This document shows positions 1 to 51,740 of a stretch of DNA of 52,935 nt, in pieces. The first letter of the stretch is position 1, and every line of letters begins with the position of its first letter. The position numbers and the translations under genes were made by a program. This stretch comes from a phage. The notes under the pieces were generated by a model. That model had not been told where the DNA came from. It saw only the letters and a list, made by a program, of their open reading frames with translations, and searched no databases. The stretch lies in the NCBI GenBank assembly GCA_024614105.1, contig GCA_024614105.1_4894.1. One strand, 5' to 3'.

Positions 1-279
1 AAAAAAACCCGTGAGGCAACAGAAGAGCTGTTGGCCACGATGCGACGCATCCAGCTGGACCCGTTGGAAGTTATGCAACGTGCTATCATACTTGCTGAAC
101 GTGAAGACGACTACAAAGCGATGATGGATGGTGCACTGGGCGTTATGCCGTACATGTATCCTAAGCTGAAAGAATCCGTTGTTAAAGCTGACATCGACCA
201 GAACCTGTCCGGTAATGGTGTTAACCTGAACATTACAATCGGTGGCCAGAAAGTGGTAGATACTACTGGGGAAGAGTAA
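1..279 (+). CDS. hypothetical protein, 5'-truncated at window edge (possibly small terminase subunit C-terminus)
   Basis: Frame 1 is open from base 1 to the stop at 277-279 and ends 3 nt before the large terminase start; call rests on position only. Confidence 0.35.
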   Translation, partial: KKTREATEELLATMRRIQLDPLEVMQRAIILAEREDDYKAMMDGALGVMPYMYPKLKESVVKADIDQNLSGNGVNLNITIGGQKVVDTTGEE

Positions 280-282
280 TAA

Positions 283-1731
283 ATGAACCTTGACTTTCAC
301 CTGCATGACAGACAAGGTGCCGCTCTGCAGTCTCAGGCAACTGAGATTCTGTACGGCGGTGCTGCTGGTGGTGGTAAGTCTCACCTTATGCGTGTAATGT
401 CAATTATCATGTGTTGCATGATACCTGACTTGCAGATTTACCTTTTCCGCCGAAACTATAACGACCTTACGGCTAACCACATGGTCGGCCCAACAAGTTA
501 TCCTGCCTTGCTGGATGGTATGTGCAAAGCTGGCAAGTGCAAGATTAACTACTCGAGCAACACGATTAAATTCTGGAACGGTGCGAACATTAAGCTTTGT
601 CACCTCCAGTATGAAAAAGATATTTATACCTACCAGGGCGCGGAGATTCACGTTCTGCTGATGGATGAGCTTACTCACTTCACAGAAACGATGTACCGCT
701 TCTTGCGTAACCGTGTCCGACTCGGTGCTCTCAAAGTACCTGAGAACTTTTTCCGGCCACTACCACTCATCTTTTGTGGGTCAAACCCCGGCGGTGTTGG
801 TCACAACTGGGTCAAGCGTACTTTCGTAACTGCTGCTCCTCCGATGAAAATCGTTAAGCAGGATAAACGTGAAGGTGGTATGGCGCGTCAGTACATTCCG
901 GCTAAGATGACTGATAACCCTACACTGATGGAAAACGACCCTGACTACGGTGACCGTCTTGAAGGTCTTGGTGACCCGGCTCTTGTTGCCGCGATGAAAG
1001 AGGGTGACTGGGATATTGTTGCTGGTGGTGCGCTTGATGACGTATGGTCAACCAAGTGTATTCTGCCACGTATGCGTATTCCGAAAGGCTGGACTATCGA
1101 ACGTTCTCTCGACTGGGGTTCTACTCACCCGTTCTCTGTTGGTATCTGGGCTATTGCAAATGGTGCCTCGCTTACAGACGACGAAGGCAATGAGTACTTT
1201 ATTCCACGTGGTTCAATTATACGTATAGCTGAATGGTATGGGTGCTCTGAAAAAGAAGCTAACAGGGGTATTAAGCTATCTGCTGCCGAAGTCGCTCAAG
1301 GTGTTCTTCGCCTACAGGAAAATCTGCAGACTGGTGGCTGGATTCAAAGCAACGTTAATCCTGGTCCGGCTGATAGTCAGATTTATGCGTGCAAAGAAAA
1401 AGACGTTGAGACTATCGCGAAGAAAATGGAAGACGAAGGCGTAACCTGGGTCAAAGCCGACAAGTCGCAAGGTTCGAGAATAAATGGCTTAGAGCTATTC
1501 CGTCAGCTTCTGAAAAATGTTAAGATGGACGAAACGGAAAAGCCGGGCATTTATTTCATGGAAAACTGTCCAGCAGCCATAAACACGTTGCCGGTTCTGC
1601 CGCGTGACAAGAACAACACGGAAGATGTCGACACGAACTCTGAAGACCACGTATACGATGATTGTCGTTACATGGTGTTGCGTGGCATCAACCGTTATAC
1701 TACCAAGCTCAAAATAAATATGGGACGGTAA
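283..1731 (+). CDS. terL: terminase large subunit
   Basis: 482 aa; N-terminal Walker A-like GGAAGGGKSH, downstream acidic LLMDELTHF; RBS GGGGAAGAG; portal gene follows 2 nt later. Confidence 0.85.
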   Translation: MNLDFHLHDRQGAALQSQATEILYGGAAGGGKSHLMRVMSIIMCCMIPDLQIYLFRRNYNDLTANHMVGPTSYPALLDGMCKAGKCKINYSSNTIKFWNGANIKLCHLQYEKDIYTYQGAEIHVLLMDELTHFTETMYRFLRNRVRLGALKVPENFFRPLPLIFCGSNPGGVGHNWVKRTFVTAAPPMKIVKQDKREGGMARQYIPAKMTDNPTLMENDPDYGDRLEGLGDPALVAAMKEGDWDIVAGGALDDVWSTKCILPRMRIPKGWTIERSLDWGSTHPFSVGIWAIANGASLTDDEGNEYFIPRGSIIRIAEWYGCSEKEANRGIKLSAAEVAQGVLRLQENLQTGGWIQSNVNPGPADSQIYACKEKDVETIAKKMEDEGVTWVKADKSQGSRINGLELFRQLLKNVKMDETEKPGIYFMENCPAAINTLPVLPRDKNNTEDVDTNSEDHVYDDCRYMVLRGINRYTTKLKINMGR

Positions 1732-1732
1732 A

Positions 1733-3295
1733 ATGTCGATAACCCCAAGCAGCACGCCGAACGTCGGATACCAGCGTCCTGAGCTGACTAAGAACGCTGG
1801 TAAGTACCGAATGATTAAGGACTGCATCGAGGGTCAGGAAGCTGTTAAAGCACGCGGTGATTTCTACTTGCCCCGTCCTGACCCTACGAACTGCACAGAA
1901 GAAAACATGATGCGGTACAATTCGTACTTGCGTCGCGCTGTGTTCTACAACGTACTGCAGCGAACTCTTTCGGGTATGACTGGTCTGGTATTCCAGCAGC
2001 AGCCTGAGATGTTGATGCCTGACGATATGGAAGTGCTGAAAGTAAATATCGACGGTGCAGGCATTGGCGCTATTCAGCAAATGCGTAAGTGCTTCAAGTC
2101 TGTTCTGGCTTTTGGTCGCGCAGGTCTGCTGACTGACTTCCCTAAAGCACGTATCGGTGAATTTGGCGAGTCCATTGGCTTTACACGTAAAGAGCTGATG
2201 GACGGAGAAGTACAGCCAACTGTAACGCTGTATATGCCATGGCAGATTATAAACTGGCGGGAAGAGTATCGCAACGGTAAAGTGATGCTCACTCAGGTTG
2301 TCATTTGCGAACAGATACCGGGGGTTACTGATGGCTTTCAGCAAGACTACACACCCGTGTGGCGTCACCTTTACCTGGATGAAGAAGGCAATTGCAACCA
2401 GTCTTTGTGGGTCAATAAGGGCGACAAGAATGCGCAGAATGTCTCCGGTGGTGCGTTGTACGTCACGCAGGAAAATGTTGTCTTACGCGACTCCAATGGC
2501 TTACCGTTGAAGTTTATTCCGTTCCAGTTTATTGGTTCTGAAACAAACAGCGCTGAGATTGACCCTCCGCCGATGTACGACTTAGCTGTGCTTAATATTG
2601 CACACTACCGTAACTCTGCTGACTACGAAGAGTCATGCTTCGTAACAGGTCAACCCACAGTATGGGCGTCTGGTCTTACTGAGGCATGGGTTGAAGATGT
2701 TCTGAAGGGTGAACTGCGACTCGGTTCGTTTGGTGGTATTCCGCTGCCGGCTAACGCCGCTGTAGGTATTATCCAGACCAGCCCTAATACCCAGCCGTTT
2801 GAAGCGATGAAGCAAAAAGAAGCACAGATGATTGCAATCGGTGCTCGTCTGATTCGTGAGAATGGTAAGGTAGAACGACGCGAAGTTGAGATTAAGAATG
2901 AAGCGGCGTCTGAAGCTTCGCTTATCGTAACTGTTGCGCAGAACGTTGAAGCTGCTTATCGTAAGGCAATCGAATGGTGTGGCCTGTTCTACGGACACCC
3001 TAAAGAAGAAATTACGATTAACCTCAGCTACAACTTCATATATAGCCAGTTGACTTATCAAGAACGTCAGCAACTGGTTAACGAATGGATTGCCGGTGCT
3101 ATCACGTTTAGTGAGATGCGTAGCAATCTTAAACAGGCTGGCATTGCTAAGCTCACCGACGAAGAAGCCAAGAAGCTAATTGATGAAGAGCTGGCTGAAC
3201 GTGATGCGCGTGAGGTAGCAAAAGAAGCAGAAAAGAACGCTCAAGCAGCTAAGAACAGCGATGGGCAGGAAAATAATCCAGAAAAAACTGAATAA
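1733..3295 (+). CDS. portal protein
   Basis: 520 aa ORF immediately after terminase; size and position typical of portal; charged C-terminal tail. Confidence 0.7.
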   Translation: MSITPSSTPNVGYQRPELTKNAGKYRMIKDCIEGQEAVKARGDFYLPRPDPTNCTEENMMRYNSYLRRAVFYNVLQRTLSGMTGLVFQQQPEMLMPDDMEVLKVNIDGAGIGAIQQMRKCFKSVLAFGRAGLLTDFPKARIGEFGESIGFTRKELMDGEVQPTVTLYMPWQIINWREEYRNGKVMLTQVVICEQIPGVTDGFQQDYTPVWRHLYLDEEGNCNQSLWVNKGDKNAQNVSGGALYVTQENVVLRDSNGLPLKFIPFQFIGSETNSAEIDPPPMYDLAVLNIAHYRNSADYEESCFVTGQPTVWASGLTEAWVEDVLKGELRLGSFGGIPLPANAAVGIIQTSPNTQPFEAMKQKEAQMIAIGARLIRENGKVERREVEIKNEAASEASLIVTVAQNVEAAYRKAIEWCGLFYGHPKEEITINLSYNFIYSQLTYQERQQLVNEWIAGAITFSEMRSNLKQAGIAKLTDEEAKKLIDEELAERDAREVAKEAEKNAQAAKNSDGQENNPEKTE

Positions 3296-3300
3296 AGCTA

Positions 3301-3329
3301 TTTACTTTCGGTTTACCTGGCTATATAAT
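3301..3329 (+). promoter_or_regulatory. sigma70-type promoter (TTTACT-N17-TATAAT)
   Basis: -35 TTTACT 3301-3306, -10 TATAAT 3324-3329; upstream of scaffold-capsid genes. Confidence 0.55.
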
Positions 3330-3336
3330 CCTTCAT

Positions 3337-3410
3337 GTCAACCGCGCAACAGCCGGCCACGAGAGTCTGCAGGGCTCAGTGGATTTCGGATGGCTGGCTG
3401 CGCGGTTTGA
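3337..3410 (+). other. GC-rich structured leader element (long imperfect stem-loop)
   Basis: GTCAACCGCGCAACAGCC pairs with GGCTGGCTGCGCGGTTTGAC around a 37-nt internal region; between promoter 3301-3329 and scaffold start. Confidence 0.4.
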
Positions 3411-3472
3411 CCCAAACCTGTTCGGAGCCCACTTGAGTGGATTGAGCCCCTCTCATATAGGATTGTAAAATT

Positions 3473-4186
3473 ATGGCACTTAAAACAGTTGTAACTGACC
3501 TTAACGAAGTTGATGAAGGCTTCCGTGGCCTGTATATCAAAGACGACGCGTCCGGTGCGTTTCGTTTGGATGTTGAACCAGACGAAAAAACGCTGAAAGA
3601 ATTAGAAGACCTGCGCAAAGAAAAACAGCGTATGGAGCAGCACACCAAAAAACTTCTCGAAGAGAAGAAAAAAGAAGCTGAACGTGCTCGCCTCGCTGAA
3701 GAAGAACGCGCACGTCGTGAGCGTGATGTTGAATCTCTTGAGCGTTCAATCAAAGAGAAGCATCAGGCTGAACTTGAACAGTATACCAGTCGTCAGGCAC
3801 AGCTGCAAGCACAGCTGGAAGCGCAGATGGTTGATAACATCGCGTTGAACCTGGCTAACCAACTCTCTGACACCCCGGCATTAATTATGCCACACATCAA
3901 GGCCCGACTGCGCGCTCAGGAAATTGATGGTAAGTGGCGTACTATCGTCGTGGATGTTATGGGTAACCCGACTGCTACAACGCCAGATGAGCTAGTGGAG
4001 CATATGCGCGCTGATAAGCAGTTTGCACCTCTTGTGCGTGGAACCAAGGCTGGCGGTGGCGGTGCCAACGGCGGCGGAGCTAATCCTGGTGGGAACGGCG
4101 GTGGCGAACAGCACACTTTCGGGGGCGGGGATGACCGCATAGCACGTGCTCGTGCTAAAATCCAAAACACACAATGGGGCAAATAA
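3473..4186 (+). CDS. scaffolding protein
   Basis: 237 aa, Glu/Lys/Arg/Ala-rich coiled-coil-like core (EEKKKEAERARLAEEERARRERD) and Gly-rich tail; sits between portal and capsid genes. Confidence 0.55.
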   Translation: MALKTVVTDLNEVDEGFRGLYIKDDASGAFRLDVEPDEKTLKELEDLRKEKQRMEQHTKKLLEEKKKEAERARLAEEERARRERDVESLERSIKEKHQAELEQYTSRQAQLQAQLEAQMVDNIALNLANQLSDTPALIMPHIKARLRAQEIDGKWRTIVVDVMGNPTATTPDELVEHMRADKQFAPLVRGTKAGGGGANGGGANPGGNGGGEQHTFGGGDDRIARARAKIQNTQWGK

Positions 4187-37168: not shown

Positions 37169-38053
37169 TTATTCGCTGGTTCCTTTCTCAGCTTGAGCGG
37201 CTTTCTTCGCCATCCAGGCTTGGTGCTTCTCTTTCGATTCGTCCGAACCAATTTTAGTGAGCTGCACGTTCGGGTCGTCGTTCTGCATCTGTTCTGCAGC
37301 TCGACCTGTCAGAAGCAGGTAGCTGTCTGACTCCGGATGATAGTACCACAGCTGGTAAGGATGATAGCCTTGCAGCTTGTCATAAATCCAGCCCAGGTCA
37401 GCAGGTTCACGTGCATCCAGTTCACGACCTGGTGCGTTACGGCACTTAGCTTCCCATTGGTAGTCGGGCTGGGTCTGAATGTAGCGCTCGCTGTTACCAT
37501 TGGCATCAGGTGCAGTCATACGTAAAGCAAGCACCGCATCCATAAGATACGGCAGTTGTTTAGGTAACTGCTGGCCAGGCATAAGTGGTGAGTACAACAT
37601 TGCACCACTAACCTCGTCCTTGTTCTTCTCAAGCTTGCACAGGTATGCAACGCTGAAAGGCAGGTCACGGAACTGACGCATGATATACATCATCTTGTCG
37701 TTGGTATTACCATAAGCCTGTCGTTTGTCGTTGACTTGCGACTTCTCATAGTCCAGACAAACTTCAGCCACATCTGACAGCGAGTCGAAAATCAGATGCT
37801 CATACTTCTGCGCATCCTTACTTTCTGTAAGCCATTTGTACAGCGCCAAAATGTCGTTGAACGTATTGATTGGCGTAGAGTCGATGTCAGCATCTGCAAT
37901 CGACATCAAACCGCCTTCAGCGTTAATGACAAGAACCTTATCGTGAGGCAAGGTCTTAGCCAGGCTTGTTTTACCAACACCTGATGCGCCGTAAATAGCG
38001 ACCTTAGGTCGCTTATTTTCTACGGCTTGTTTAGTAGATACAATCTGAACCAT
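37169..38053 (-). CDS. RecA-fold AAA ATPase, Sak4-like recombination protein
   Basis: 294 aa; Walker A VAIYGASGVGKTSLA; Walker B-like HLIFDSL; paired with SSB-like gene. Confidence 0.65.
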   Translation of the reverse strand: MVQIVSTKQAVENKRPKVAIYGASGVGKTSLAKTLPHDKVLVINAEGGLMSIADADIDSTPINTFNDILALYKWLTESKDAQKYEHLIFDSLSDVAEVCLDYEKSQVNDKRQAYGNTNDKMMYIMRQFRDLPFSVAYLCKLEKNKDEVSGAMLYSPLMPGQQLPKQLPYLMDAVLALRMTAPDANGNSERYIQTQPDYQWEAKCRNAPGRELDAREPADLGWIYDKLQGYHPYQLWYYHPESDSYLLLTGRAAEQMQNDDPNVQLTKIGSDESKEKHQAWMAKKAAQAEKGTSE

Positions 38054-40149: not shown

Positions 40150-40436
40150 TTACGTTTACCTTTACGTTTGTGTAGCGGAGTATATGTTTTCTTTGGCACG
40201 CCGAACATAGCCGCATATGTGCCGACTTCTTTCTTTGTTGGCTTATCCACAATTTCGTCAATCACGATTAAGTCATGGTCGATATTACGAAAGGCTTCAG
40301 CCGCTCTTTTCTCAATAGGCGTAAAGTCAATAACCAGCTCTTTGCCTATCAGGCTTTCTTTGAACTTGTCAAACAGCCATTTGTCACGCGGACCAGGATT
40401 GCCAATAAACATAACACGCACCTGCTTATTGTCCAT
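40146..40436 (-). CDS. hypothetical protein
   Basis: 96 aa; basic C-terminus (KRKGKRK). Confidence 0.4.
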   Translation of the reverse strand: MDNKQVRVMFIGNPGPRDKWLFDKFKESLIGKELVIDFTPIEKRAAEAFRNIDHDLIVIDEIVDKPTKKEVGTYAAMFGVPKKTYTPLHKRKGKRK

Positions 40437-45095: not shown

Positions 45096-45175
45096 ATACT
45101 CTTTTTGGCTTTTTAAATTAGCTATAATTAGGTATAGAGCAAAAATATGGTCCTAAGCTCTTAATTTATATACTC
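45080..45175. repeat. 22-bp imperfect direct repeat, two copies
   Basis: TAAGCCCTTATTTTATATACTC (45080-45101) and TAAGCTCTTAATTTATATACTC (45154-45175). Confidence 0.6.
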
Positions 45176-45212
45176 ATTTTGAATTTATAATATATGGCCT
45201 CGATAAATAAAA

Positions 45213-45259
45213 ATAAAGGGGGTAATAAAGGGGATACAAGTACCGGATAAAAGGGGGTA
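45213..45259. repeat. three iteron-like 12-bp direct repeats ATAAAGGGGGTA
   Basis: Copies at 45213-45224, 45225-45236 and 45247-45259 in an AT-rich intergenic region. Confidence 0.55.
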
Positions 45260-45262
45260 TAT

Positions 45263-45310
45263 ATTTATTTATTATTATTATTATTATTATATATTATTAA
45301 TTATATTAGA
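45263..45310. repeat. (ATT)n microsatellite within AT-rich tract
   Basis: tttatttattattattattattattatatattattaattatatta. Confidence 0.7.
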
Positions 45311-45349
45311 AGTAATAAAAACAGCTACTTAGAGGCGTCTATATGTATG

Positions 45350-45385
45350 ATCCGGTTTATCTCTTTATTAATATCAGAACCGGAT
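45350..45385. other. 8-bp inverted repeat enclosing a 20-nt AT-rich loop
   Basis: ATCCGGTT ... AACCGGAT. Confidence 0.4.
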
Positions 45386-45449
45386 GAAAAAAATATTTTT
45401 CGCCAGCGAAAAATTTAAAAAGTTGACAATTGAGTGTAAAATATAGACG

Positions 45450-45478
45450 TTTACACTTATTTTTATATACGCTACAAT
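45450..45478 (+). promoter_or_regulatory. sigma70-type promoter (TTTACA-N17-TACAAT)
   Basis: -35 45450-45455, -10 45473-45478; an additional TTGACA hexamer at 45423-45428. Confidence 0.5.
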
Positions 45479-45521
45479 GTATGTTAATATGATTAAACAC
45501 AAATATTTGGAGGTTGTATAA

Positions 45522-45722
45522 TTGGACAATGAAAACGTTAAGAAAGCAATACTGTTATTGGCTGATGAAGTAGATTTATTGAGGGCTTATGCTCAAGCCA
45601 ATGGTGAGGGTAGAGCGCGATTGATTGGCCGGTTGAGAACTACCTGGAAACGTCAGGCTGAGAACGGTGTGTCTTTTGAAAAATTAATTGCACTTCTTAT
45701 GGAGATAACAGATAATGGTTAA
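45522..45722 (+). CDS. hypothetical small protein
   Basis: 66 aa; TTG start with RBS GGAGG 9 nt upstream; downstream of promoter 45450-45478. Confidence 0.35.
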   Translation: MDNENVKKAILLLADEVDLLRAYAQANGEGRARLIGRLRTTWKRQAENGVSFEKLIALLMEITDNG

Positions 45723-46146
45723 TATTCGGCAGAAAGGACAGAACTTTGAGCGCAAAATGGCTAAGAAGTTCAATAGCTCGTTCGGATTAACTGTTGAGCG
45801 CAATCTTCAACAGTCTATTAATGGCGGGGACGACTTGCTTGGTGTGCCGTTTTTCAGCGTTGAACTGAAGAAGCACAATACCAAGTCTATCGGAACATGG
45901 TGGAGACAGTGTGCGGCATCGGCAAAGGCGCAGAATAAGATGCCGGTACTGATATACGAACTACCAAGAAAACAGCCTGTCGTGGTGATGAATAAGGCTG
46001 ATGTGATTGACTGTTTTCCAAGTGGCACGACTTTTAACGAGGCATCGACCCGACTCTTTGTGGGTCTAGTAGAATTAACATGGGAACAATTTTGCCGGGT
46101 CTACAACTATTACGTTGCGCCCGGCACTCAATATCACGTCAATTAA
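45715..46146 (+). CDS. PD-(D/E)xK nuclease, Holliday-junction-resolvase-like
   Basis: 143 aa; GQNFERKMAKKF ... GGDDLLGV ... SVELKKH resembles the G..FER / D / E.K arrangement of Hjc-type resolvases. Confidence 0.45.
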   Translation: MVNIRQKGQNFERKMAKKFNSSFGLTVERNLQQSINGGDDLLGVPFFSVELKKHNTKSIGTWWRQCAASAKAQNKMPVLIYELPRKQPVVVMNKADVIDCFPSGTTFNEASTRLFVGLVELTWEQFCRVYNYYVAPGTQYHVN

Positions 46147-46328
46147 TCTTGTTTCAGCTCGTCGCAAATGACACGCTGATTTTTGGCAGGGATAATACCA
46201 AGATTTAGCAGGGTGTATGGACTATCAGCGACACATTGTTCAACGGTAGTCCATTCAGGTTTGGATTCAACAATTTTGTAACTACAATCATGAGTAGCCA
46301 CACATGTTGCCAGGATTAAGCCAATCAC
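46143..46328 (-). CDS. hypothetical small protein with N-terminal hydrophobic segment
   Basis: 61 aa, GTG start overlapping upstream stop (GTGA), RBS GAAGGTGA; N-terminus IGLILATCVA. Confidence 0.35.
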   Translation of the reverse strand: MIGLILATCVATHDCSYKIVESKPEWTTVEQCVADSPYTLLNLGIIPAKNQRVICDELKQD

Positions 46329-46504
46329 AAGTAATCACCTTCAACCAGAAATTCAAACAGCTGGTTGTAAACGTTGCAACCTTTAGCGAAAGAGCTTTCA
46401 GCAGGTTTACCGTCGCGGACAATCATCATATACTCACCGCCATGGATGTCCACCCAGTATTGCATGCCACCTTTGACCGGGTTACGTTGTAAGAATTTAA
46501 ACAT
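46325..46504 (-). CDS. hypothetical small protein (not in ORF track)
   Basis: 59-aa ORF found by hand (MFKFLQRNPVKGGMQYWVDIHGG...), RBS GGAG, TAATG coupling with upstream gene. Confidence 0.3.
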   Translation of the reverse strand: MFKFLQRNPVKGGMQYWVDIHGGEYMMIVRDGKPAESSFAKGCNVYNQLFEFLVEGDYL

Positions 46505-46749
46505 TATTTGCTCCTTATTCCAAGTTTATTCAATAGCCACACTGTCATGTCAACCCAGGTTAACGGTACAGTTTTCGGGGGTTGATAATTCCAGCAGCTT
46601 GCAGTTCTTTGTATTTCTGCTTGGCGCCGCTCCGCTTCGCGTAGTACCGCATCGTCAGAAGTGCTGGCAGAAAAAAGATCGGTAACACCAGATAAATCGC
46701 GTTGATTAACACGTCGAGCAATGTCATATAAGTCATCCTTAGAAAACAT
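46504..46749 (-). CDS. hypothetical protein
   Basis: 81 aa. Confidence 0.4.
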   Translation of the reverse strand: MFSKDDLYDIARRVNQRDLSGVTDLFSASTSDDAVLREAERRQAEIQRTASCWNYQPPKTVPLTWVDMTVWLLNKLGIRSK

Positions 46750-46864
46750 AAGCCAATACCATAAGAATTACCAGAAAGATCCCAACCAGCTTCCTCATCG
46801 CCCGACCTTCAGCATATGCAGGATTCACAACAGAATACTCAACAACATGTTTACAGCGGACCAT
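46739..46864 (-). CDS. hypothetical small membrane peptide (not in ORF track)
   Basis: 41-aa ORF with strong RBS GGAGG 5 nt upstream and hydrophobic C-terminus (LVGIFLVILMVLAYVF). Confidence 0.3.
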   Translation of the reverse strand: MVRCKHVVEYSVVNPAYAEGRAMRKLVGIFLVILMVLAYVF

Positions 46865-46888
46865 AAGGCCTCCACTTGTGGGTTAATT

Positions 46889-46935
46889 CAATCATGAGGA
46901 CTTTCATCAAATCCTCATTGTTGAACCAATTACCA
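46889..46935. repeat. intergenic hairpin element, copy 1 (family with conserved flanks)
   Basis: caatc-ATGAGGACT-ttcatca-AATCCTCAT-tgttgaaccaattac. Confidence 0.5.
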
Positions 46936-46955
46936 GCGTCAGGACTTTGTTGATA

Positions 46956-47156
46956 TTACTCTATCATTACCTGAACTACTATTATACACTCTTTATTGAA
47001 GCGAGTAAACACTTTTCCACCATTAGTGCGTTTAGCCCCAGATTTTAGAGCTGACTGGCACCAGATATGCCACTCCTCAACTGTCAAGAATTTTTGTTCA
47101 GCTTTGGGTGGCAATCCATGGGCAAGGTCTACCGTAGTAAATTTGACTAATGGCAT
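46956..47156 (-). CDS. hypothetical small protein
   Basis: 66 aa from ATG 47156; TGATG coupling. Confidence 0.35.
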   Translation of the reverse strand: MPLVKFTTVDLAHGLPPKAEQKFLTVEEWHIWCQSALKSGAKRTNGGKVFTRFNKECIIVVQVMIE

Positions 47157-47545
47157 CACTTGACCTCAAATTTTGACTCGTCATATTCCGGATCAGTCAC
47201 GTCCCGGGTCGCACAATTTTTGATTGCCTCCCAGTAACGTTGGGCATCATCGCCATCGACATAAACTGTCCAGTGGCCGTAACCACCTTCAAATCTGTCC
47301 CAGGCTTGTTCCCAGACTTTGCCATCTTCCAGCTTGTACCAAGTTGGACGACTGTCAAACTCGCGGATTGGATGGTACCCCATCAAGGGATTCATCAGGT
47401 CAATAATGTCTTCCCGACTAATCTCCTGGTTCTCCCACAACACCGTCATGAATTGCTCAAACTTGAAGGCGTTTGGCAGAACTTTGATGACTTCACCATC
47501 ACGATATACGGTATAGGTGCCATCTTCGCATTTTGCACTGTACAT
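47156..47545 (-). CDS. hypothetical protein
   Basis: Start moved to ATG 47545 (MYSAKCEDG) with strong RBS AGGAGAGAG; upstream hairpin element in leader. Confidence 0.45.
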   Translation of the reverse strand: MYSAKCEDGTYTVYRDGEVIKVLPNAFKFEQFMTVLWENQEISREDIIDLMNPLMGYHPIREFDSRPTWYKLEDGKVWEQAWDRFEGGYGHWTVYVDGDDAQRYWEAIKNCATRDVTDPEYDESKFEVK

Positions 47546-47570
47546 GTTTCTCTCTCCTATTGATATAATT

Positions 47571-47615
47571 TCAATCATGAACTATCACAACTTTGGATAG
47601 TTCATTGTTGAAACT
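47571..47615. repeat. intergenic hairpin element, copy 3
   Basis: caatc-ATGAACTATC-acaactttg-GATAGTTCAT-tgttgaaactatac; perfect 10-bp stem. Confidence 0.5.
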
Positions 47616-47787
47616 ATACTAACTTTGTTACAATCTGAATTGTCAGCCGGAAATCTTCCATCAAGTTATCAAACTCTTTGGAACCACCAACAGCGTCAGA
47701 AATTTGGTCTTTGACTATCTGGGCATTTGATTCCAGTAATTCAATCAGGTGCGCCAATTCGTCTTCAGTCAATTTCAGATCTTTCAT
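47614..47787 (-). CDS. small acidic helical protein, member of a three-paralog family
   Basis: 57 aa (MKDLKLTEDELAHLIELLES...); ATGA coupling; paralogous to 48047-48205 and 48909-49082. Confidence 0.4.
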   Translation of the reverse strand: MKDLKLTEDELAHLIELLESNAQIVKDQISDAVGGSKEFDNLMEDFRLTIQIVTKLV

Positions 47788-48041
47788 AATGCATCCACCC
47801 AAGCCATAACTTTTGCCAGTTTTACAACGTCGTCATGGTCCCGCTCGCCATCAGAAAATTCGCTGGCGATGATACCCATAATTGACGCCAGATTCATATT
47901 GATGATGTAGGCGTGTTGGCGCACTTCATCAATTCCTGAATCTATCACCAGCTCCGCAAATTCTTGTGAACCTTCATCCCATTCAGCCCAATACTGTTCA
48001 GCATAAAAGTCCAGTTCTTTTTTCATCTCAATGTCAGTCAT
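47784..48041 (-). CDS. hypothetical small acidic protein
   Basis: 85 aa. Confidence 0.4.
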   Translation of the reverse strand: MTDIEMKKELDFYAEQYWAEWDEGSQEFAELVIDSGIDEVRQHAYIINMNLASIMGIIASEFSDGERDHDDVVKLAKVMAWVDAL

Positions 48042-48046
48042 TTTGA

Positions 48047-48205
48047 TTACTCCTCAGAACCTGAAAATTTGTCATCAATGGACTCAACAATATAATCAAG
48101 AGTTGAAGTGTGAGAACTATCAGAAAAAGTGCCCATCTTCTCCAGCTCAATCATCATATCCCGTAAAGCCATTGCCTGGTCTTTGGTCAGTTTAATTTTA
48201 AGCAT
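48047..48205 (-). CDS. small acidic helical protein, member of a three-paralog family
   Basis: 52 aa from ATG 48205 (MLKIKLTKDQAMALRDMM...) with RBS AGGAGAGAG; hairpin element upstream. Confidence 0.4.
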   Translation of the reverse strand: MLKIKLTKDQAMALRDMMIELEKMGTFSDSSHTSTLDYIVESIDDKFSGSEE

Positions 48206-48230
48206 GTCTCTCTCCTGTTGATTGTGAATA

Positions 48231-48270
48231 ATTTCAATTGATGGCACTACTTGAGTGCCATCTCAAAAAT
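48231..48270. repeat. intergenic hairpin element, copy 4
   Basis: caatt-GATGGCACT-acttg-AGTGCCATC-tcaaaaattac; perfect 9-bp stem. Confidence 0.5.
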
Positions 48271-48812
48271 TACTCTTCAGTTTCTTGGGTTTCAGGTTTT
48301 TGACCAGTCACAGACTTGCCCTCAGTCACTTTACCAGATTTTACATCATTCCGGTAGTATGACATATATGACTGGATAACTCTTTTGGCTTTGATGTCAT
48401 CCGCTTCCATCCCACAGGCTTTCATGGCATCAACTAGGGCCAGTTTGGAATCTTCCTTGTCCATCAGGTTATAGTCCTTAAATACCAGATAACAAGTATC
48501 TTTGGTTGATGGACCAGATGACTTCCGGGCCCCGCCATTGGAAGATTTTGATGCCACAACTTTGACCTCTTCCACTTCCAGTTGGTTCAGTTCATCAAAC
48601 AATGCCTTGACCAACACTTCTTTTGAGTCCTTGACACTTACAGTACTTTCATCATTAAGGGACTTAATCATCTTAATGATCTGGTTATTGGCAAAGTACT
48701 GAAGACTATCCATCTGCACTACAATAGTCCCAAGACTTTCAGTAGTCAGACCAGATTTTACAGACTCAACAGAAAAGGCGGAAGTCAGGTAAACATAGTT
48801 GATAGTTGTCAT
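48270..48812 (-). CDS. hypothetical protein
   Basis: About 180 aa from ATG 48812 (MTTINYVYL), RBS-like AGGA upstream; largest gene of the small-gene block. Confidence 0.45.
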   Translation of the reverse strand: MTTINYVYLTSAFSVESVKSGLTTESLGTIVVQMDSLQYFANNQIIKMIKSLNDESTVSVKDSKEVLVKALFDELNQLEVEEVKVVASKSSNGGARKSSGPSTKDTCYLVFKDYNLMDKEDSKLALVDAMKACGMEADDIKAKRVIQSYMSYYRNDVKSGKVTEGKSVTGQKPETQETEE

Positions 48813-48868
48813 TTGATGTATCCTCATTGATAGAATTTTTGATAGGTGTCAATCCTTGACAAGTAAAT

Positions 48869-48912
48869 CCAATCATGAGGACTTTTACCAAGTCCCCATT
48901 GTTGGAAATTAC
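48869..48912. repeat. intergenic hairpin element, copy 2
   Basis: caatc-ATGAGGACT-tttacca-AGTCCCCAT-tgttggaaattac; near-identical to copy 1. Confidence 0.5.
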
Positions 48913-49082
48913 TTCAACTTAACCAGAATTGATTGGAGTAACTTGACCCTCACTTCCTGGTCTTTGACATCCCTTCCACTCTCCCTGTCATATTCCAACA
49001 GGTCACTTTCCATAAATAAAGTAGTGTCCAATTGGTCAACCAATAATTCCAGTTCTTCTTGGGACAATTCTAAAACTTTCAT
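48909..49082 (-). CDS. small acidic helical protein, member of a three-paralog family
   Basis: 57 aa from ATG 49082 (MKVLELSQEELELLVDQL...) with RBS AGGAG. Confidence 0.4.
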   Translation of the reverse strand: MKVLELSQEELELLVDQLDTTLFMESDLLEYDRESGRDVKDQEVRVKLLQSILVKLK

Positions 49083-49086
49083 CTTA

Positions 49087-49233
49087 TTACTCCTGATATT
49101 TAACAACTTGGGATTGGATAAAGTCAACACAATCTTCCACATCCATTGATTCAAAGTCTGGAACTGGACCATTGTTTATATTGACACACCAAAGCCCTTC
49201 ATTGGTATCATACCAAAGTGTGTAGTTGTCCAT
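49087..49233 (-). CDS. hypothetical small protein
   Basis: 48 aa from ATG 49233 (MDNYTLWYD) with RBS AGAGGTGA; first gene of the small-gene block. Confidence 0.3.
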   Translation of the reverse strand: MDNYTLWYDTNEGLWCVNINNGPVPDFESMDVEDCVDFIQSQVVKYQE

Positions 49234-49260
49234 CTTAATAGTCACCTCTTGTACTAGTTT

Positions 49261-49306
49261 CCAGTTGTGACTACTGTTACCAATAGTCACTGGTTGAAAC
49301 TATTAC
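49261..49306. repeat. intergenic hairpin element, copy 5 (imperfect)
   Basis: CCAGTTGTGACT...AGTCACTGG followed by conserved flank ttgaaactattac. Confidence 0.35.
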
Positions 49307-49623
49307 TAGTGTTACTATCAACAAGAAACATGTTACCAGATTGTTAAAGAGCAAAAGGTACCATTAACATCTACCAGATGTACCTGTTGACTGGTTAAGT
49401 ACTACCTACCCAAATTAAACCATACCAATACCCTCCAGACCAGTTGACTGGTCACTCAGTCATCACATTCAATAAATATATAATAGTCCAATCCCTCTTG
49501 ATTGTACACCTTATATTTGTAAGTTTATGCAAGTTTTTAGAAATGATAATCACTTGCGATTGAGAGTGGTTCTCATATGCAATTGATATAGTTTCACATG
49601 TAATTACTCAACTCAAAATGGTC

Positions 49624-49680
49624 GGCAGGGGTTATAATCACATAGGGGTGCCACTTAAAGGAGCCGGCGAAATTATTTCT
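49624..49680. repeat. direct repeat unit A (about 50 bp) in noncoding control region
   Basis: GGCAGGGGTTATAATCACATAGGGGTGCCACTTAAAGGAGCCGGCGAAATT; shares GGGGTGCYAC and GGAGCCRGCRAAATT blocks with unit B. Confidence 0.5.
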
Positions 49681-49800
49681 AAAAATATAATTTCAATCTG
49701 AATTATAGACGCTTTGTACTATACCGGCCGAAGTAGTTCACACGGTAATTGTACCAATCATAATAGTTACCAGGGTAATCATTTCAATTGAAATAGGTGC

Positions 49801-49860
49801 GGCGGGGGGTAATTTCGCAGGGGTGCTACCTGCCAGGAGCCAGCAAAATTTTTTTATTTT
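49801..49860. repeat. direct repeat unit B (about 50 bp) in noncoding control region
   Basis: GGCGGGGGGTAATTTCGCAGGGGTGCTACCTGCCAGGAGCCAGCAAAATTTTTTTATTTT; a third partial AAAATTTTTTTATATTTTTC tract at 49947-49975. Confidence 0.5.
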
Positions 49861-50084
49861 TTCTCTATTTTCTCCTTATCAGGACCAATCATCATCAGAT
49901 TGATACAACAGGAGCTAACCTTTTGCCTAACACAATAATAAGTGAAGCCCCTCTAAAATTTTTTTATATTTTTCGGAAATTGTGTAGACACTCACTAAAA
50001 AGTGGTGTACTTTCTCTCCTCCACGCGCTATCATTAATGCGAATAATCAAACGGCCTCACGGTCTCCTACTTGTGGGTAACATT

Positions 50085-51237: not shown

Positions 51238-51740
51238 ACATCATAATCGAGGGGCCCGACAATGCTGGTAAATCTACACTTATTGAGTTCCTTAAATCTC
51301 ATACTGGCCGCAATGTTATTCATAATACTGTTGATAAAGACCCCGAATCGGTCATGGCTAAACAGGCCAAAGAAAACGCGTTGGAAGGCGATTGCATTTA
51401 TGATCGTAGCGCTGTTATATCTGAGTATATCTATTGCCTGGTTCTTCAACGTACGCCTGTCATCAATATTAATGTATCACATGTAGCAGATATGTGTGAC
51501 AACGCCATCGTTATCTTTTGTATGCCGCCTGTTGAAAAGGTACTGGCAACTACAAAAGACGAAATGCCTGGTGTTGTGGAAAATCTTGAGGCGTTATACA
51601 ATCAGTATGACAACCTCATTGATGAACTGGTTCTGATGAGCAAGCAGTTCTTCATTTACGACTGGACTGTTGAAGAAGACGGTCCTGAAGCAGCTCTCGA
51701 ATATATCAACGAACGTATTAATAAGGAGTGGAACAAATGA
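51234..51740 (+). CDS. P-loop nucleotide kinase (dNMP kinase-like)
   Basis: 168 aa; Walker A GPDNAGKST near N-terminus; ATGA coupling to DHFR gene. Confidence 0.55.
   Translation: MNIIIEGPDNAGKSTLIEFLKSHTGRNVIHNTVDKDPESVMAKQAKENALEGDCIYDRSAVISEYIYCLVLQRTPVININVSHVADMCDNAIVIFCMPPVEKVLATTKDEMPGVVENLEALYNQYDNLIDELVLMSKQFFIYDWTVEEDGPEAALEYINERINKEWNK

Follow-up and report, generated by a model that had tools for sequence, protein, structure and literature searches.

A conserved non-coding gap and its repeated units

The DNA analysed here (the window, 52,935 nucleotides at its full length) contains, close to its right end, a non-coding gap of 851 bp (49234-50084) located between a block of small leftward genes and a rightward block. 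This stretch matches 61 phage records, of which the closest are Rosemountvirus isolates with 94-98% identity (Salmonella phage 8-19, brunost, JEP7 and others), and it is matched at ~72% by Loughboroughvirus (S144, ZCSE2, SE4 and AEV23) and by Erwinia phage SOI901. Because of these matches, the window is taken, on sequence similarity, as the whole ~53-kb genome (52.9 kb) of a Rosemountvirus myovirus. The gene of the large terminase subunit lies at 283-1731, and no tRNA or tmRNA genes were found in the window.

A non-coding gap of ~850 bp between the leftward small-gene block and the rightward block was present in every clade, and the rightward block beyond it opens in all of them with a conserved hypothetical gene followed by that of dihydrofolate reductase. 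The original prediction, made from the letters alone, had described this gap as devoid of credible ORFs and had named conservation in relatives as a test of its relevance; no ORF of at least 40 aa was contained wholly within the gap, and both its size and its sequence blocks were kept across three clades. Therefore, the repeats in the gap are more than a chance arrangement. In an alignment of eight genomes, the two repeated units described below, a 110-bp block (49497-49610) and an 18-nt block (49995-50013) were conserved across genera, and the spacers between them were variable. In IMG/VR, searched for further relatives, TAAAAAGTGGTGTACTTT matched four isolate genomes already known and, by chance, one coding region, and the matches of GCCGGCGAAATTATT were mostly chance 15-mers.

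The repeated elements and the core sequence that they share are the following, with a caret marking the position of a cut:

49614-49694, plus strand: unit u1, consisting of a G-rich left half, the core and an A/T tract (profile E 7e-21)
49663-49672, plus strand: core of u1, GCC^GGCGAAA, with a cut predicted at 49665^49666
49706-49710, plus strand: TAGAC box after u1
49732-49780, plus strand: three 15-bp tandem GTAAT repeats (GGTAATnGTTACnnn) between u1 and u2
49789-49869, plus strand: unit u2, consisting of a G-rich left half, the core and A4T7AT6 (profile E 2e-18)
49839-49848, plus strand: core of u2, GCC^AGCAAAA, the predicted right physical end of virion DNA (49841^49842)
49947-49975, plus strand: u3, a degenerate third copy (GCCCCTCTAAAATTTTTTTATATTTTTC) that reads GCCCC TCT AAAATTTTTTTATATTTTTC and is without the RGC half of the core
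45402-45411, plus strand: core of u0, GCC^AGCGAAA, the predicted left physical end, with 45405 as the first base of the predicted terminal repeat

When a profile built from 16 copies of the unit was run over the window, it matched solely at u1 and u2, in each case along ~80 nt. A repeat finder detected a shared 20-mer (AGGAGCCGGCGAAATTATTT and AGGAGCCAGCAAAATTTTTT) at a spacing of 176 bp, and the exact pattern GGAGCCRGCRAAATT was found only at 49660 and 49836. Two related units had been predicted at these places, and they are the only two that the profile matches in the genome; their positions were right, whereas their extents were not, as each unit is ~10 nt longer per side. The partial third copy announced at 49947-49975 is also present, as are two copies of GTTGACTGGT, which the repeat finder placed at 49382-49395 and 49439-49452 and of which only the first is conserved in relatives. 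As a genome-wide motif, GGGGTWWW was not significantly enriched (14 occurrences vs 8.9 expected).

Exactly three copies of the core GCCRGCRAAA are present in the genome, always on the plus strand, at 45402 (u0), 49663 (u1) and 49839 (u2), vs an expectation by chance of 0.40, and three occurrences were not reached in any of 100 shuffles. The hexamer GCCGGC alone is not rare in the window, so the specificity resides in the extended core. Both the core search and the unit profile missed u3, which lies outside the predicted terminal repeat. The other three sites are conserved in three clades, and u0 was found conserved in S144, SE4 and SOI901. This copy of the core at 45402-45411 falls outside the region covered by the original prediction.

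The units could in principle act as RNA. Small structured RNAs transcribed rightward from them would be in agreement with an extended -10-like sequence (TGATATAGT) located ~25 nt upstream of u1, with the T-rich tract that ends each unit and with the high conservation of the units. However, no Rfam family was detected at gathering thresholds in the whole window, nor was any credible one found in the region at E values up to 10. The folds of the units on the plus strand were no better than those of shuffled sequences, with z-scores of -1.06 and +0.37, and single-sequence folds of both strands gave the same outcome. Moreover, RNAalifold returned zero consensus pairs from 16 copies belonging to all clades, and by eye every candidate helix, such as GUCGGC/GCCGGC, is moved out of register or disrupted by the differences between clades. 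A role of the units as intrinsic terminators or attenuators of early transcripts would be in line with u2, where a G+C-rich segment is followed by A4T7AT6; against this, a terminator scan found none in the units, no stable conserved hairpin adjoins the T tract, and u1 has no T run.

As Rfam, folding, RNAalifold and the terminator scan all came back empty, both readings were set aside: a small-RNA function is very improbable, and a terminator or attenuator function is just as hard to credit. The original prediction had considered small-RNA genes likely, which is not borne out by the absence of an Rfam match, of covariation and of a consensus fold. On the other hand, it had anticipated correctly that the units would show no conserved hairpins and that terminators were unlikely.

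Candidate transcription signals in the gap

The gap lies between divergent operons and was originally described as a divergent control region. The elements that bear on this description are:

49497-49610, no strand assigned: near-invariant 110-bp block with GCAAGT twice, an inverted ACTTGC, TGAGA/TCTCA and TGATATAGT
49508-49480, minus strand: leftward promoter candidate TGTACA-17-TATTAT, from the consensus scan
49985-50013, plus strand: rightward early promoter candidate TAGACA-N17-TACTTT, with the invariant 18-nt block TAAAAAGTGGTGTACTTT, proposed from the alignment
49356-49385 and 49248-49309, minus strand: two hairpins predicted by RNAalifold in the 5' leader of the leftward operon
45450-45478, plus strand: predicted sigma-70-like promoter TTTACA-N17-TACAAT, inward-reading and 45 bp to the right of the predicted left end

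The TTTACA-N17-TACAAT sequence is conserved in Sz, fHy-Eco03, S144, SE4 and SOI901. The rightward candidate TAGACA-N17-TACTTT was not picked up by the consensus promoter scan. The near-invariant block 49497-49610 is probably the core of a divergent promoter/operator, in which the leftward candidate TGTACA-17-TATTAT is included. As an RNA element this block was rejected: RNAalifold found no covariation in it (0 of 24 pairs with changes on both sides), because the block shows almost no variation. The leader of the leftward operon, of ~240 nt, did show covariation: among seven relatives, both partners had changed in a compensatory manner in 6 of the 33 pairs of its hairpins. On the minus strand, the hairpin at 49356-49385 is followed by TTTTGCTCTTT, and that at 49248-49309 lies immediately upstream of the ribosome-binding site.

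These signals bring in the possibility that the units themselves are transcription-control DNA, with UP-element-like A/T tracts and regulator sites that serve the divergent early promoters, and with their coincidence with DNA ends being secondary. The location of the gap between divergent operons agrees with this, and so do the A/T tracts upstream of both TAGACA-N17-TACTTT and TTTACA-N17-TACAAT, the adjoining 110-bp invariant block with its repeated GCAAGT motifs, and the predicted promoters that the annotators of S144 and AEV23 placed in the gap. Nevertheless, the consensus scan found promoter-like sites in numbers similar to those of shuffled sequences (3 vs 3.8) and none in the units, and this explanation does not account for the presence of virion ends at the same motif base in three sites. 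Regulation as the main role of the units is therefore unlikely. A control function can coexist with the cut sites proposed below, for which it is no substitute, and the gap is plausibly also a divergent control region with candidate promoters and covarying leader hairpins. This part of the original description can be kept; as for the units, the virion ends of relatives indicate that they are primarily cut sites.

Virion DNA ends in related phages and the predicted terminal repeat

A comparison with related phages had been proposed as a check on the original prediction, and it located virion DNA ends within the units. The clearest case is the Rosemountvirus-like phage fHy-Eco03, for which direct terminal repeats of 3,699 bp with 11 genes were called by PhageTerm (PMC8145870) and assigned to the class 'DTR (long), T5' (PMC8145870 supplement). 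In its record (MW602648), the terminal repeat is annotated as 1..3699, in left and right copies, and extends from u0 to u2. It starts as ^GGCGCAAAAAG at u0 (record start ^GGCGCAAAAAGAAAAAAAGCCGGATTG) and ends as ...TTAATTTAAGCCCC^, followed by GGCAAATTTTTTATTTTTTT in the unique part; because of this ending, its right border lies inside u2, in the block shared by the units. The right terminus at u2 reads ...GCCCC^GGCAAATTTT (...AAGCCCC^ before GGCAAATTTTTT).

The PhageTerm peaks published for this phage (PMC8145870 supplement) are, on the plus strand, 47595 (T 0.66, p 1.5e-114) and 51118 (T 0.40, p 2.1e-26), and on the minus strand, 51293 (T 0.68, p 1e-195), 51117 (T 0.59, p 3.9e-149) and 51453 (T 0.07). 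After conversion to record coordinates, 47595 corresponds to the left end at u0 and 51293 to the right end at u2, the latter being the strongest of the minus-strand peaks (T 0.68). The pair 51117^51118 corresponds to 3523^3524 of the record (GTTCCCC^GGCGCAATTTTT), which is the homologous position of u1, 176 bp to the left of the u2 cut. The weak minus-strand peak at 51453 was the only one near u3, and it is off the homologous position.

There is no plus-strand peak after u2 and no minus-strand peak before u0 in fHy-Eco03. This strand pattern implies that left ends come from u0 and u1 and right ends from u2 and u1, so that u1 is the only one of the three sites to give both. The plus and minus peaks of u1 fall at adjacent bases (CCCC^GGCG), which points to a blunt double-strand end at this site. 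The authors of the fHy-Eco03 study did not discuss these second peaks (PMC8145870).

Other relatives place their ends at the same bases. The record of vB_SalM_Sz (57,020 bp) has an exact terminal redundancy of 4,263 bp, from u0 to u2, which starts at the same u0 base as that of fHy-Eco03 (^GGCGAAAAAAATAAAAAAGCCGGATTG; ^GGCG...), and the record finishes as ...CTGCCAGGAGCC^ (GGAGCC^), which aligns to position 49841 of the window; the ends of this record could have been copied from fHy-Eco03. In S144, 3,915 bp separate the first base after GCC in u0 from the last base of GCC in u2, a distance identical to the length of the direct terminal repeat determined by PhageTerm for the near-identical AEV23 (3,915 bp; PMC12918118). 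In the AEV23 record, this repeat corresponds to positions 49979..53893 (3,915 bp), and the phage sequence ends exactly at the u0 cut, where it is fused to unrelated IS5-type DNA; the ends of this record are not redundant, and it includes non-phage DNA. The u0-to-u2 distance in SE4 is 3,913 bp, and the LPSEYT record has its break 7 nt rightward of the u2 cut. The 'repeat_region' features of nenneke-type records correspond only to a 51-bp (ATT)n tract, not to the terminal repeat.

Physical evidence is available for S144, where restriction mapping revealed a non-cohesive DNA end in the same gap, cohesive ends having been ruled out by a fast/slow cooling (heating) test (PMC7432712). In the published gel, a 12.6-kb SspI fragment is replaced by two unexpected bands of 5-7 kb, and PacI gives a band of 7-10 kb (PMC7432712). 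Within 4000-53628 of S144, SspI was found in silico to cut at 40302 and 52906, and PacI at 37912. From this map, right-end SspI fragments of 5,662 bp (u2) and 5,487 bp (u1), left-end SspI fragments of 10,857 bp (u0) and 7,117 bp (u1), and a right-end PacI fragment of 8,052 bp were predicted. The reported bands agree with cuts at u1 and u2. In the S144 study, short terminal repeats were inferred, and a left-end fragment of ~10.9 kb, as a u0 end should produce, is not reported (PMC7432712); the gel alone gives no u0 end, which for S144 speaks against a purely long-repeat arrangement. For the related phage vB_SenM-1, PhageTerm gave a 'COS' call, which could be explained if, in those data, the two neighbouring peaks of u1 exceeded all others.

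Transferred to the window by homology, these ends delimit one further feature:

45405-49841, no strand assigned: predicted long direct terminal repeat of 4,437 bp, by homology to fHy-Eco03, Sz and S144/AEV23

This interval holds two rightward genes, one of which encodes a PDDEXK/RusA-like nuclease, ~12 small leftward genes and most of the gap, of which ~610 bp (49234-49841), with repeats and hairpins, lie at the inner end of the predicted repeat. The left border (45404^45405) reads tcGCC^AGCGAAAAATTT and lies upstream of the small rightward gene and the PDDEXK/RusA-like nuclease gene. Position 45405 is orthologous to the first base of both the fHy-Eco03 and the Sz records, and u0 is also orthologous to the point where phage DNA stops in the AEV23 record. 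The assembly is thus predicted to contain the terminal repeat collapsed into a single copy, with its ends transferred from relatives, and the chromosome in the virion would by homology be of ~57.4 kb.

A stretch of this kind, large, non-coding, rich in repeats and located where a long terminal repeat with small early genes has its inner end, resembles the untranslated region that carries the injection stop signal of T5 (10.1101/866236). The region could accordingly be a replication origin or a T5-like injection stop, in which the units and the 15-bp repeats would be iterons and the double-strand ends at u1 would be breaks at a site related to replication or injection, not packaging cuts; the three 15-bp tandem repeats, whose GTAAT columns are invariant and spaced by 15 bp in the eight-genome alignment, and the A/T-rich tracts are in agreement with this. 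TRF detected a period-15 array in S144 and none in the window. However, there is no cluster of DnaA boxes, the single near-match (50072-50080) overlapping a ribosome-binding site, and the GC skew tracks gene orientation. In addition, the cut at u1 is at the exact motif position of both termini, which points to one nuclease specificity. No cognate initiator was found for such iterons, the GC skew is uninformative in this respect, and there is no positive sign of an origin. For an origin or an injection stop, the probability is low, somewhat below that given above to regulation.

Probable packaging cut sites: proposed mechanism and known systems

Taken together, the data make it probable that the repeated units are DNA-packaging cut sites that border the inner edge of a long direct terminal repeat. 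In the relatives, virion DNA ends at these sites, the repeat is found at both chromosome ends, and the sites have a rare core in common, with the cut at GCC^RGC in u0, u1 and u2. The enzyme responsible is presumably the phage terminase. The original prediction had considered sequence-specific recognition by a protein likely, and the ends of relatives do fall at a shared GGAGCC^RGCRAAATT block. The existence of the terminal repeat in relatives is already published; the papers examined describe neither the core common to all cuts, nor the strong cut that u1 receives within the repeat, nor the modular reading that follows.

According to this explanation, u0 (45404^45405) would give the left ends of virion DNA and u2 (49841^49842) its right ends, so that the DNA between them would be present at both ends of the chromosome, and u1 (49665^49666), 176 bp inside the repeat, would give both left and right ends, as in fHy-Eco03. 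The terminase would cut blunt at GCC^RGC within the core GCC^RGCRAAA. The G-rich left half of u1 and u2 reads GAAAT.GG..GGGGGTAAT..GGTG..GCC, and this half, common to both units and located on the packaged side of right ends, may constitute a termination module. To the right of the cut, a sequence loosely common to u0 and u1 may constitute an initiation module at packaged left ends; it consists of GGCG(A/C/G)AAA, an A/T-rich stretch and a TAGAC box at +39/40, found in 12 of the 12 copies examined. The u2 of the window has no TAGAC box at this spacing.

The similarity between the left ends of u0 and u1 is weak and limited to the core and the TAGAC box. Profiles of the right halves of u0 and u1 did not detect each other, so overall homology of these halves is not claimed, and the coincidence of the TAGAC box at +39/40, noticed post hoc, has a chance of roughly 0.006.

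On these grounds u1 would be a complete site, able to terminate and to re-initiate packaging, which would support processive cutting, whereas u0 (cut plus initiation) and u2 (termination plus cut) would be half-sites whose separation by 4 kb makes the long terminal repeat. That the three sites form such a 'split cos', with a complete u1 and u0 and u2 as half-sites, is put forward tentatively, as a possibility that falls short of even chances. The virion chromosomes would then be a mixture of u0-u2, u0-u1, u1-u2 and possibly u1-u1 molecules, with repeats of ~4.4 kb, ~4.3 kb, 176 bp and none, respectively. Molecules from u1 to u1 would be without terminal redundancy, and this would count against the cut-site explanation. 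The near-equal values of u0 on the plus strand (0.66) and of u2 on the minus strand (0.68) fit packaging series that start at u0 and end at u2. A four-class model of end combinations gave no exact fit to the four PhageTerm T values, and the fit is only qualitative because the two u1 peaks differ ~twofold in odds.

The cut-site explanation would define where the chromosomes of a group of ~60 sequenced Salmonella/E. coli phages physically end; these phages are under development for biocontrol, and most of their database records are arbitrarily permuted and without the ~4-kb repeat. It would also mean that each virion has two copies of ~14 small early genes, and it would provide a short packaging signal usable for engineering these phages. 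If the modular reading is true, the specification of a long terminal repeat, poorly understood for T5-class phages, can be explained simply at the level of sequence; if the mixture from split sites is true, it reconciles the long-repeat, short-repeat and COS calls published for near-identical phages.

Among known systems, T5 is similar in its exact terminal repeat of kilobase scale with small early genes and in the repeat-rich untranslated region at its inner end (10.1101/866236). It differs in the length of the repeat (~10 kb, vs ~4 kb here) and in the DnaA-box array of its injection stop (10.1101/866236), absent here, whereas the phages studied here have a common cut motif at both borders and an extra internal cut site. 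In related phages of the Bacillus cereus group that have direct terminal repeats, an identical short terminal sequence was proposed as the site of terminase recognition or cleavage (PMC5418689); the sequence and the phages are different, and no internal third site was described there (PMC5418689). Variable lengths have been mentioned for the terminal repeats of N4-like phages (PMC5418689). The likeness with N4 lies in the use of more than one end position, which results in molecules with different repeat lengths; here, in contrast, the alternative site is a discrete full copy of the motif, located 176 bp away and giving left and right ends.

T7 and T3 have short direct terminal repeats and process concatemer junctions. 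As in the present phages, their ends are formed sequence-specifically at either side of a repeat of which the concatemer has a single copy, and the u1-to-u2 interval (176 bp) has the size of a T7-type repeat. Unlike T7 and T3, S144 encodes no phage RNA polymerase (S144 paper). Furthermore, the main repeat here is ~25 times longer, and the same motif is present at both of its borders.

The three sites also recall cos of lambda, which is made up of cosQ, cosN and cosB and generates 12-nt cohesive ends. Here, the ends are blunt or non-cohesive, as indicated by the adjacent u1 peaks in fHy-Eco03 and by the heating test of S144, and there is no sequence similarity to cos. The likeness would reside in the organization, with a putative termination element, a partly symmetric cut (GCC^GGC) and a putative initiation element kept at the packaged left end, and u1 would be like a complete site that yields both ends. 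In contrast to cos, the modules would be spread over three loci, and it is this arrangement that would give rise to the terminal repeat.

Leader hairpins and a near-invariant block in the non-coding gap

In the non-coding gap (49234-50084), the 5' leader of the leftward operon of small genes holds two hairpins:

49248-49309, minus strand: leader hairpin
49356-49385, minus strand: leader hairpin, upstream of the other

In both of them, pairing is kept in relatives through compensatory changes. The upstream hairpin is followed on the minus strand by TTTTGCTCTTT and hence resembles a terminator or attenuator.

Further along, a block of 110 bp (49497-49610) shows hardly any variation among three phage clades, and its conservation exceeds that of the genes on either side. 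It contains two GCAAGT copies spaced 11 bp, an inverted ACTTGC and a TGAGA/TCTCA pair, and has the appearance of a promoter/operator core for some regulator. DnaA-box-like 9-mers (TTATCCACA, up to one mismatch) were counted over the whole window, giving 24 matches against 13.8 expected, a number reached in none of 100 shuffles, and this whole-genome count revealed no clustering of them in the gap.

Repeats and variation at the proposed packaging cut-site units

Between the two cut-site units u1 (49614-49694) and u2 (49789-49869) lies a short array:

49732-49780 (1665-1704 in phage S144): three 15-bp tandem repeats

The repeat unit, GGTAATnGTTAC, is a partial palindrome in which GTAAT is invariant in each of the three copies. 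In S144 the array was detected by TRF, which gave no such call for the window.

Within u1, the close relatives S144 and SE4 differ by a GG to CC change (TAGGGGTG vs TACCGGTG), which also concerns KE25 and SOI901. The change improves the palindrome to ACCGGT, the KE25 form being ACACCGGTGT, and the difference resembles a template-switch correction of a quasi-palindrome.

Surroundings of the predicted DNA ends

The region 45100-45400, upstream of the proposed left cut site u0, is A/T-rich and non-coding. Besides an (ATT)n tract it contains two motifs, GGGGGTA(A/T), that are similar to the G-run of the cut-site units, and immediately ahead of the cut site stands the inverted repeat ATCCGGTT...AACCGGAT. 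Close to the predicted left end, on its inner side, lies the following gene:

45715-46146: nuclease gene, with matches to Pfam PDDEXK_15 and to the PHROG "RusA-like resolvase"

In the AEV23 record (OR810919.1), about 1.7 kb of non-phage DNA (53894-55637), carrying an IS5-family transposase, a methyltransferase and tandem GCTGGCGGG repeats, is joined exactly at the phage left terminus. This fusion probably arose at a free DNA end, as a chimera produced by assembly or ligation.

In the published PhageTerm mapping of the relative fHy-Eco03, a weak but significant minus-strand peak was reported at position 3859 (T 0.07, p 1.7e-7), 160 bp rightward of the main right terminus and in the tail of the equivalent of u3, the degenerate third unit copy; this position may be a minor cut site.

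The fHy-Eco03 orthologue of the nuclease was found in virions by mass spectrometry. Of eight restriction enzymes, seven met with resistance from the DNA of this phage, a pattern not accounted for by known methylation sensitivities, and the authors of the study suspect a DNA modification of unknown type (PMC8145870).
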